A stretch of 64,000 bases of DNA from Eledone cirrhosa (Eukaryota). The first letter of the stretch is position 1. Each line of letters starts with the position of its first letter. Below the pieces are notes generated by a model, which was not told where the DNA came from, did no database searches, and worked only from the letters and a program-made list of their open reading frames with translations. The stretch covers positions 66,526,001 to 66,590,000 of the forward strand of contig OZ024746.1 of NCBI GenBank assembly GCA_964016885.1, read 5' to 3'. Below, one piece after another: positions 57,751 through 59,159 of the stretch. The position numbers were made by a program, and so were the translations under genes.

Positions 57751-58112
57751 AAATGTGGTAAGGAACCAGGTGGACCATAACGCACCAAAGTACTCAATAC
57801 TTGAGGTAGTAGAGTGGGTAATAGGAACCAGTAAGACCCCGACAGCTGAGCTCAAGCCGTTTCGACGGCTAATTCTGGACTAAAAAAAAATTTATGAATA
57901 ATCATCAATTCAGAGTTTTAGTCCATACATCCTGAATCTCAAATGCTAGAATTGCACCTAAATACGGATTATCCTGAAGGGAAATGCATTTTCAGAAGGC
58001 TCGCGACAACACAATAAACAGATTAGAGACTATAAATTTTTTTTTTTTTTTAGTCCAGAATTAGCCGTCGAAACGGCTTGAGCTCAGCTGTCGGGGTCTT
58101 ACTGGTTCCTAT
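57751..58112 (-). mobile_element. Fold-back element family E, copy 3, with about 145 bp of captured DNA in the loop
   Basis: Arms 57751-57881 and 58052-58112; loop = A-run + reverse complement of 58977-59120 + T-run. Confidence 0.9.
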
Positions 58113-59159
58113 ATATATATATATAAAACCATACTCTACTTCCCCAACTATCGACAACTCTTTTCAGTAATAGTCTAACAAATTTAAAACTAAATTCATC
58201 CTGATTTATACACACACACATGCACATATACTCCCCCCCCCATATATATATACTCAAAAGAGTACTCGATACTTGGGGATATATATATATATATATATAT
58301 ATATATATATATATATATATATATATATATATATATACACACATACATATATATATATATATGTATATATATATACATATATATATATATATATATATAT
58401 ATATATATATATATATATATATATATATATATATATATATATATATATATATATATATATATCATTATTATTATTTTATTATTATTATTATTGTTGTTGT
58501 TAAATCAAACTTCAACGCAGCTGGAGTTTCACATTTTATTTCTTGTTTTCTCAAGTACTTTCTTGTTTCTTCTGTAATATTATTTGGTGCAATTGGCAGT
58601 TTGCCTTCGTTACAAATAATACATCAGTGGCTTACATGTATTTGAAGTGATACATTCTATTAAACATAATTCTATTTTACATAATTTATGTTTGGTAATG
58701 TTACTTTTACGTTGTAAGTTTATCAAGGAGAGATAACCTATAAAAGGGTATTGGTTAATAAAACTTAGATAATGGATCACCTTAACACAACTTGAATTAA
58801 ATTAAAGTAAATCGAACTAAATCAAATTGAATTAGTGTCAATGTATATTAAGATTTGATTTCAACTTTCGAATAAAACTATTTTCTTTTGAATTAACAAA
58901 CGACATGAAGTTTATAAAATGTACATATTGTTTTAAGTTTGTTTCCAAATATCCATTTAATACCATCACTCATGCATTATAGTCTCTAATCTGTTTATTG
59001 TGTTGTCGCGAGCCTTCTGAAAATGCATTTCCCTTCAGGATAATCCGTATTTAGGTGCAATTCTAGCATTTGAGATTCAGGATGTATGGACTAAAACTCT
59101 GAATTGATGATTATTCATAATATTAGCCTTCTGTGACCACTTCCATTAAATCAATGACA

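Follow-up and report, generated by a model that had tools for sequence, protein, structure and literature searches.

The locus described here raises the question of how a single-locus piece of flanking DNA came to lie, inverted, at the turn point of a retroelement hairpin. The window, that is, the whole stretch of 64,000 nucleotides of Eledone cirrhosa DNA that was analysed (G000:C6:66526001-66590000), lies within a 3.0-Gb genome. In a preliminary description of this DNA, an apparently exact reverse complement of about 145 bp had been noticed between 57892-58035 and 58977-59120. Pairwise alignment of the two segments gave 144 identical bases out of 144, with zero extension beyond either edge and a spacing of 941 bases between insert and donor.

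The insert is part of a head-to-head insertion into a (TA)n target, whose left and right parts were found at 57571..57750 and 58110..58125, respectively. The long arm (57751-57881) consists of the "tail" of a Penelope-like element (PLE; 57751..57823, minus strand), which is present on this arm only and lacks the last 7 nt of its usual 80 nt, and of a part common to the short arm (57824..57881, minus strand). By alignment and descriptor scan, the common part is the 3′ half of the hammerhead-like fold of the parent element and comprises the 3′ strand of stem II, GAAA, stem III, the GUC site, and the 3′ strand of stem I. It is followed by A9-T (57882..57891, plus strand; A9 at 57882-57890 and T at 57891), by the captured 144-bp copy of the right flank (57892..58035, minus strand), and by A-T15 (58036..58051; A at 58036 and T15 at 58037-58051), which reads A15-T on the minus strand. 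The short arm of 58 nt (58052..58109, plus strand) stops at a fixed internal point, GTTCC|TA. The two A(n)T stretches would represent the 3′ ends of the long-arm and short-arm cDNAs, respectively, with an expanded run where the parent template gives AAA-T. No filler separates the insert from either A(n)T end, no clear microhomology was seen at either boundary, and each arm is complete up to its A(n)T, with no sequence lost. The arms are inverted repeats identical at 58 of 58 positions, and the locus is among the youngest copies, with no substitution between the arms or between patch and donor.

The donor (58977..59120, plus strand; from alignment, genome searches, and short-read contigs) is intact and present at a single locus. 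A DNA search of the animal's own genome with the 144-mer returned two matches from two candidates, namely the insert and the donor, and a 761-bp query over the donor returned these two together with 39 listed old relatives of 65-77% identity, most of which lie to the right of the 144-mer. The 144-mer is therefore not a young high-copy repeat, a case that the preliminary description had named as one that would refute it, and its proximity to the insert is no coincidence. The 144-mer scored 260 bits in BLAST against its own flank and 25.6 against the flanks of 20 other loci. The donor overlaps the left edge of an old dispersed repeat, recognised by genome search and translation (59075..59610, plus strand), to which the 65-77% identical relatives belong. 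The translation of this repeat resembles, by its motifs, a decayed Tc1/mariner-type transposase, and the donor probably borders an old mariner-like relic; a Pfam scan of this frame gave no matches. A scaffold gap of 200 N occurs at 61620-61819, 2.5 kb to the right of the donor.

It had also been proposed that the captured piece contains a hammerhead-like string and may itself be a PLE terminus. This part of the description did not stand. The descriptor used (core CUGANGA or the U3-A8 variant, stem II, GAAA, stem III, NUH, and stem I) detected the fold in its positive controls, the parent element and a site near 62632, and matched neither strand of the insert or the donor under strict or loose settings; CTGAAGG is followed directly by GAAA, without stem II. 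As a PLE terminus, the piece would be expected to recur, and no dispersed copies with a common end were found, the insert and the donor being the only copies genome-wide. An Rfam scan of window positions 50000-64000 returned no ribozyme family, only microsatellite-driven miRNA matches.

Judged from its sequence, the hairpin family, called family E here, consists of 3′ ends of a Hydra-clade PLE that are inserted into (TA)n in head-to-head pairs. Longer-loop copies run past the inner end into a common sequence, the parent element. Its ORF pieces at eight loci (L073-L080) contain YRDD of the reverse transcriptase (RT) followed by VIY..YIG of a C-terminal GIY-YIG endonuclease as one reading unit, and their Atlas neighbours carried RVT_1, GIY-YIG, and HTH_animal at 0.95-0.98. 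Pfam and PDB scans of these ORFs gave no matches; all copies read were frameshifted or truncated. DKG is modified to DKT (HSDKTG in L075 and L077), the CxCx5C linker is present as CNCPDRSIC, and the CCHH motif is absent inside GIY-YIG, with one Cys only between VIY and YIG (L077 and L080). The same two loci have CxxC before E (CNLC..E) and CxH after N (N..CKH), and the N-terminal RWK motif has a loose match only (RLSWR in L074). The pseudo-LTRs (pLTRs) form tandems in L074 and L077, and (TA)n insertion, an inverted 5′-truncated copy, and a one-sided tail were also observed. (TA)n insertion, DKT, CxCx5C, lack of CCHH, CxxC..E, and N..CxH are among the diagnostics of the Hydra clade (PMC8557442), in which the parent is placed by motif match rather than by a tree.

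Genome-wide, 3281 hairpins matched exactly at both inner ends with 0-40 nt of loop between them, and another 236, found with slightly longer anchors, had loops of 70-400 nt. Of the first 49 sites taken from the 0-40-nt list, 47 carried the tail on one arm alone and none on both arms, and the arm lengths were mostly 138 and 58 nt. More than 3,000 hairpins end at, or a few bases from, a single inner point, which lies in the long stem II of the parent fold and not at the ribozyme cleavage site; family E arms keep only the 3′ half of the fold. This point falls at an initiator-like string (TCATTT/TTAGTC). When it was examined as a capped transcription start, C and G were equally common as the first foreign base (12 and 12 of 98 ends). 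An internal promoter has been described (PMC2377424). In 11 of 15 parent loci (L034, L036, L037, L041, L042, and L073-L078), the descriptor scan detected a type I hammerhead-like fold with a U3-A8 core, a stem II region of 54-56 nt, and a palindromic loop III. Three loci, forming a subfamily (L039, L045, and L046), had a C3-mismatched core, and L033 had no fold. An Rfam scan of the parent pLTR yielded only microsatellite-driven miRNA matches and no ribozyme family. The parent pLTR may carry a putative type I hammerhead-like ribozyme with the non-canonical U3-A8 core, a variant that has been described (PMC4209133). Two other head-to-head copies of family E with short loops occur in the window, at 56855..57063 and, in opposite orientation, at 62860..63059, and a diverged relative with a different inner joint lies at 30289-30440. 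The loops of four other window hairpins had microsatellite or own-arm matches only and no unique local donor.

The A and T runs that bracket the insert had been noted before, together with the idea of non-templated tailing during the joining of the arms. The runs are present, and they belong to the arms rather than to the piece because the parent reads AAA-T-G on the cDNA strand at this inner end and because such runs also occur in junctions without a patch: at least 6 A were found at the arm end in 846 arms, mostly without any patch. Both window arms end in A(n)-T, with 9 and 15 A. The loop would accordingly be the joint of two cDNA 3′ ends, and the runs may have grown by stutter on UUU or by untemplated addition. 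Among 70 pairs of arms examined, 38 were scorable for subfamily variants at three sites, and 35 of these shared the variants at all three (random expectation, 16-21 per site), while A-run lengths were equal between the arms in only 3 of 22 pairs, two figures to which later homopolymer slippage or arm conversion could have contributed. Arms that share variants and differ in their A runs point to one template and two separately finished ends. In vitro, a purified PLE protein of the Poseidon clade cleaves both strands and extends each of them, and the tail corresponds to the interval that separates two RT start sites (PMC11167929). A two-ended model is supported by this activity together with the occurrence of the tail on exactly one arm in nearly all hairpins.

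To see how widely local copies occur in the loops of family E, a pattern requiring at least 4 A on both arms and a loop of 35-400 nt was used, which gave 47 sites including the window locus. Thirty-two junctions were then compared with their 5-kb flanks: the window locus, 18 of the other 46 sites that looked complex, 2 from the list of 70-400-nt loops, and 11 more added later from these two lists and a further one; the remaining sites appeared, over the 80 bases viewed, to consist of element sequence or of A/T runs alone. In 14 of the 32, the loop contained a clear copy of non-element DNA from the vicinity (L084-L089, L092-L095, L097, L101, L153, and the window), a count from junctions chosen by eye from pattern lists, which gives no rate. 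A probable low-complexity local copy was present in 3 (L096, L102, and L158), and the remaining 15 contained element-derived, A/T-only, iterated, or unplaced sequence. In these flanks, no local donor was found for L090 or for half of L091, the latter matching another repeat. The own flank outscored 20 foreign flanks in all 13 clear cases among the first 21 junctions. The patches were 23-230 nt long, and the donors lay 85-2917 bp away (median, 781 bp), crowding near the break within 1.5 kb (KS test against a uniform distribution over 4.8 kb, p=1e-4). Seven donors were direct and seven inverted, seven lay on each side, and no side or strand rule was found in these 14 cases. With about 3,500 hairpins in the genome, at least 14 such cases correspond to a lower bound near 0.4%.

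Patch and donor differed by 31 substitutions in 1168 positions (2.7%) and arm and arm by 22 in 784 (2.8%), both pooled, and the patch therefore has the age of the element; 10 of the 14 clear cases had substitutions between patch and donor. The patch at the window locus is real and recurrent in the family, and the earlier proposal that a nearby locus templated the insertion where the arms are joined gains from both the recurrence and the matching ages. At other junctions, 0-3 nt of A/T overlap was seen in several cases and fillers in others. Patchwork, slip-back, or iterated junctions were observed in L085, L095, L100, L162, and L148. In L085 (G000:C1:325305650), the patch consists of an inverted and a direct piece, which derive from a distance of about 2.9 kb and are joined at a 3-nt overlap, an arrangement that fits both cDNA ends copying the same strand. 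Short copies of the arm end occurred in 4 of 49 short loops. In L162 (G000:C4:232832761), L100, and L083, short units were iterated, including a T-rich unit of 7 nt repeated about 15 times and three copies of an arm end, much like repeated priming rounds or telomerase-style reiteration.

We lean slightly towards an account in which the 144-bp patch was copied from the right flank while two cDNA ends were unjoined, by microhomology-primed copying followed by end joining. The endonuclease would cut both strands within (TA)n, and both DNA ends would prime reverse transcription on one RNA, at two start sites. Since both cDNA ends are A-tailed, they would be unable to pair with one another, and the break would stay open and its flanks would be resected. 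Using 0-3 nt of microhomology, one cDNA end would then prime on the exposed flank at a distance of about 1 kb; in the inverted case of the window, the short-arm end would most simply fold back on its own strand. A host repair polymerase, of the Pol theta type or similar, would extend the primed end by 144 nt; once released, this end would be joined to the opposite one, and the donor would be restored by fill-in. Priming on DNA is supported because both donor orientations occur, as expected of inter- and intramolecular priming (PMC7165422), and a Pol theta-like repair because patchwork and iterated joints resemble Pol theta scars (PMC12426944). Pol theta insertions share with the family E patches a local template, both orientations, 0-3 nt of microhomology, patchworks, fillers, and iterated copies. 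However, they are usually shorter than 25 bp, with first-round tracts rarely above 10 bp and a template within about 30 bp of the break (PMC12426944; PMC7165422), and the length and the reach of up to 2.9 kb found here count against a plain Pol theta reading, although the pattern itself required loops of at least 35 nt. Fold-back insertions in yeast are also short (PMC11724301).

The element RT might have done the copying itself, jumping at the RNA 5′ end to nearby single-stranded DNA (the resected flank or a resection fragment) with no host polymerase involved. We regard this as a real but rather unlikely rival, and junction details fit either enzyme alike: filler-free joints would be obtained in about 7 of 12 cases under snap-back by a repair polymerase and in about 6 of 12 under an RT jump, so that snap-back does no better and the cleanliness of the junctions gives the RT no advantage. 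Patch lengths up to 230 nt would suit a processive RT, the window insert meets both A(n)T ends without filler, and both pieces of L085 are compatible with top-strand fragments, while under the snap-back account one of them must derive from a strand removed by resection. The R2 RT adds untemplated bases and switches templates (PMC8857657; PMC13586686), and templated insertions below 250 bp at L1 have been ascribed to cDNA that leaves the RNA and pairs with nearby DNA (bioRxiv 2024.08.27.596794). In contrast, template jumping by a PLE RT is not described in the available text of PMC11167929, and the iterated short self-copies of L100, L162, and L148 resemble repair-polymerase scars. In the most far-reaching form of this alternative, which we would likewise call unlikely, a telomerase-related Hydra-clade RT would copy a single RNA at each end of a double-strand break and would afterwards jump, unaided, to the resected flank up to 3 kb away; if so, the patches would be a fossil record of the two-ended intermediate and of germline resection lengths across thousands of insertions. 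A further candidate, excision of the donor by the endonuclease at A|TT on both strands, was rejected: it holds for both window boundaries, but only about 2 of about 24 others fit. A preference of the PLE endonuclease for ATT has been described (PMC11167929). The local template could also have been nascent RNA reached by an RT jump, an option raised in the preliminary description, and the L1 RT switches to other RNAs (PMC11702581); we judge this quite improbable, since the 31 substitutions show no A>G excess (4 A>G and 4 T>C), donors occur on either side and on either strand, concentrated within 1.5 kb, and no distant or spliced donor occurred among the clear cases.

Perfect inverted repeats are break-prone, and the patch might have arisen later, when the near-perfect palindrome formed a hairpin or cruciform whose tip was cut and repaired by a locally templated insertion. 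The same repair signature would be expected, and a spacer would stabilise the palindrome, but both arms run all the way to A(n)T with nothing missing, and the equal divergence of patches and arms when pooled implies that any delay was short, unless arm homogenisation has blurred this comparison. We consider such late repair improbable. That the junction is an artefact, arising from the assembly or from a chimeric fold-back read where a palindrome sits in long (TA)n, appears very improbable. The identity of 100% would suit it, and in short-read contigs from three runs of one sample, the 144-mer was found in a single contig of 1137-1161 nt without branches, which matched all 144 bases and had a size that fits the donor locus, and the insert junctions, including the left one, were spanned by none of the listed pieces; the same data had extra depth over the right end of the insert. 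Contig simplification or a different haplotype can explain this result. Moreover, the copy has sharp ends and the A(n)T borders typical of the family, the same design recurs at 11 or more other sites, and in 10 of the 14 cases patch and donor differ by substitutions, which an artefact would not produce.

Copying by a host enzyme at two unjoined cDNA ends, the reading preferred here, can be compared with known systems. Templated insertions at L1 are alike in that genomic DNA near the target is copied in during integration, in tracts below 250 bp, and in that they are rare (bioRxiv 2024.08.27.596794; PMC11702581): 22 were reported beside 3,598 truncated L1s (bioRxiv 2024.08.27.596794). They differ in that templates at L1 are typically no more than 15 bp from the site, whereas those of family E are 85-2917 bp away on either side and strand, and in that the family E patch lies between the two cDNA 3′ ends of a head-to-head pair, whereas the L1 case is a single joint of cDNA to target. 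Elements of the Hydra clade share the motifs, the (TA)n target, pLTR tandems, the inverted 5′-truncated copy, and the one-sided tail (PMC8557442). In contrast, the tail of family E is about 80 nt and that given for PLEs is 30-40 bp (PMC8557442), thousands of family E copies of 138+58 nt halt at one inner point, and the putative ribozyme has a long stem II and, as its core, the non-canonical U3-A8 variant. In Adineta vaga, Penelope insertions likewise have head-to-head inverted pLTRs, an optional tail, microhomology at the 5′ joint, captured host DNA, and proposed template jumps; there, however, the captures lie inside the element (spacers, Asn-rich inserts, and a whole gene), and the inverted joint was read as self-priming (PMC3846280). 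Local flank copies at the inverted joint are not described for Adineta vaga in the available text of that paper.

Flank patches at PLE joints are likewise not covered in the accessible parts of bioRxiv 2026.07.22.740005 or PMC9977147, and our literature search, which reached few subscription papers, yielded no report of flank-templated patches or of kilobase reach at PLE head-to-head joints; supplements (S1/S2 of Craig et al., with the Hydra consensuses, and Fig. S4d of the L1 preprint) may name the family or longer-range L1 cases. The layout of PLEs and templated insertions at L1 are thus known, and the kilobase reach and the setting of two cDNA ends make the present case a modest variant. 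How PLEs complete integration and acquire their inverted shape is treated as open in PMC11167929 and PMC8557442, and self-priming was proposed in PMC3846280. Flank DNA from either side and up to 3 kb away, lying between two complete arms, implies that the break persisted for long while both cDNA ends were free. Priming from both DNA ends with subsequent end joining is thereby favoured over a rapid fold-back. As such junctions can be counted, they also report on host repair at a retroelement other than L1 and R2. The single locus in the window shows no sign of function; it is a by-product whose use lies in what it tells about PLE integration.

Several other features were observed in the window. 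A minimal hammerhead-like motif followed by AATAAA lies beside (TA)n at 62630-62720; its stem I has only 2 bp, and it is probably the end of another PLE family. Further inverted-repeat structures, most of them beside (TA)n, occur at 14457-15340, 19527-19949, 32429-32835, 35816-35908, 40843-41189, 53315-53544, and 54257-54937, and several look like other PLE-type head-to-head insertions. A LINE with APE endonuclease and RT frames is located at 430-6000 on the minus strand, with a second, fragmented copy of about 89-91% identity at 44979-48213, and another RT frame spans 6858-9209. A dispersed repeat of about 190 bp, probably a SINE, was found at 19103-19494 (in tandem, 19.1-19.5 kb), 38868-38931, 42539-42690, and 57258-57437.
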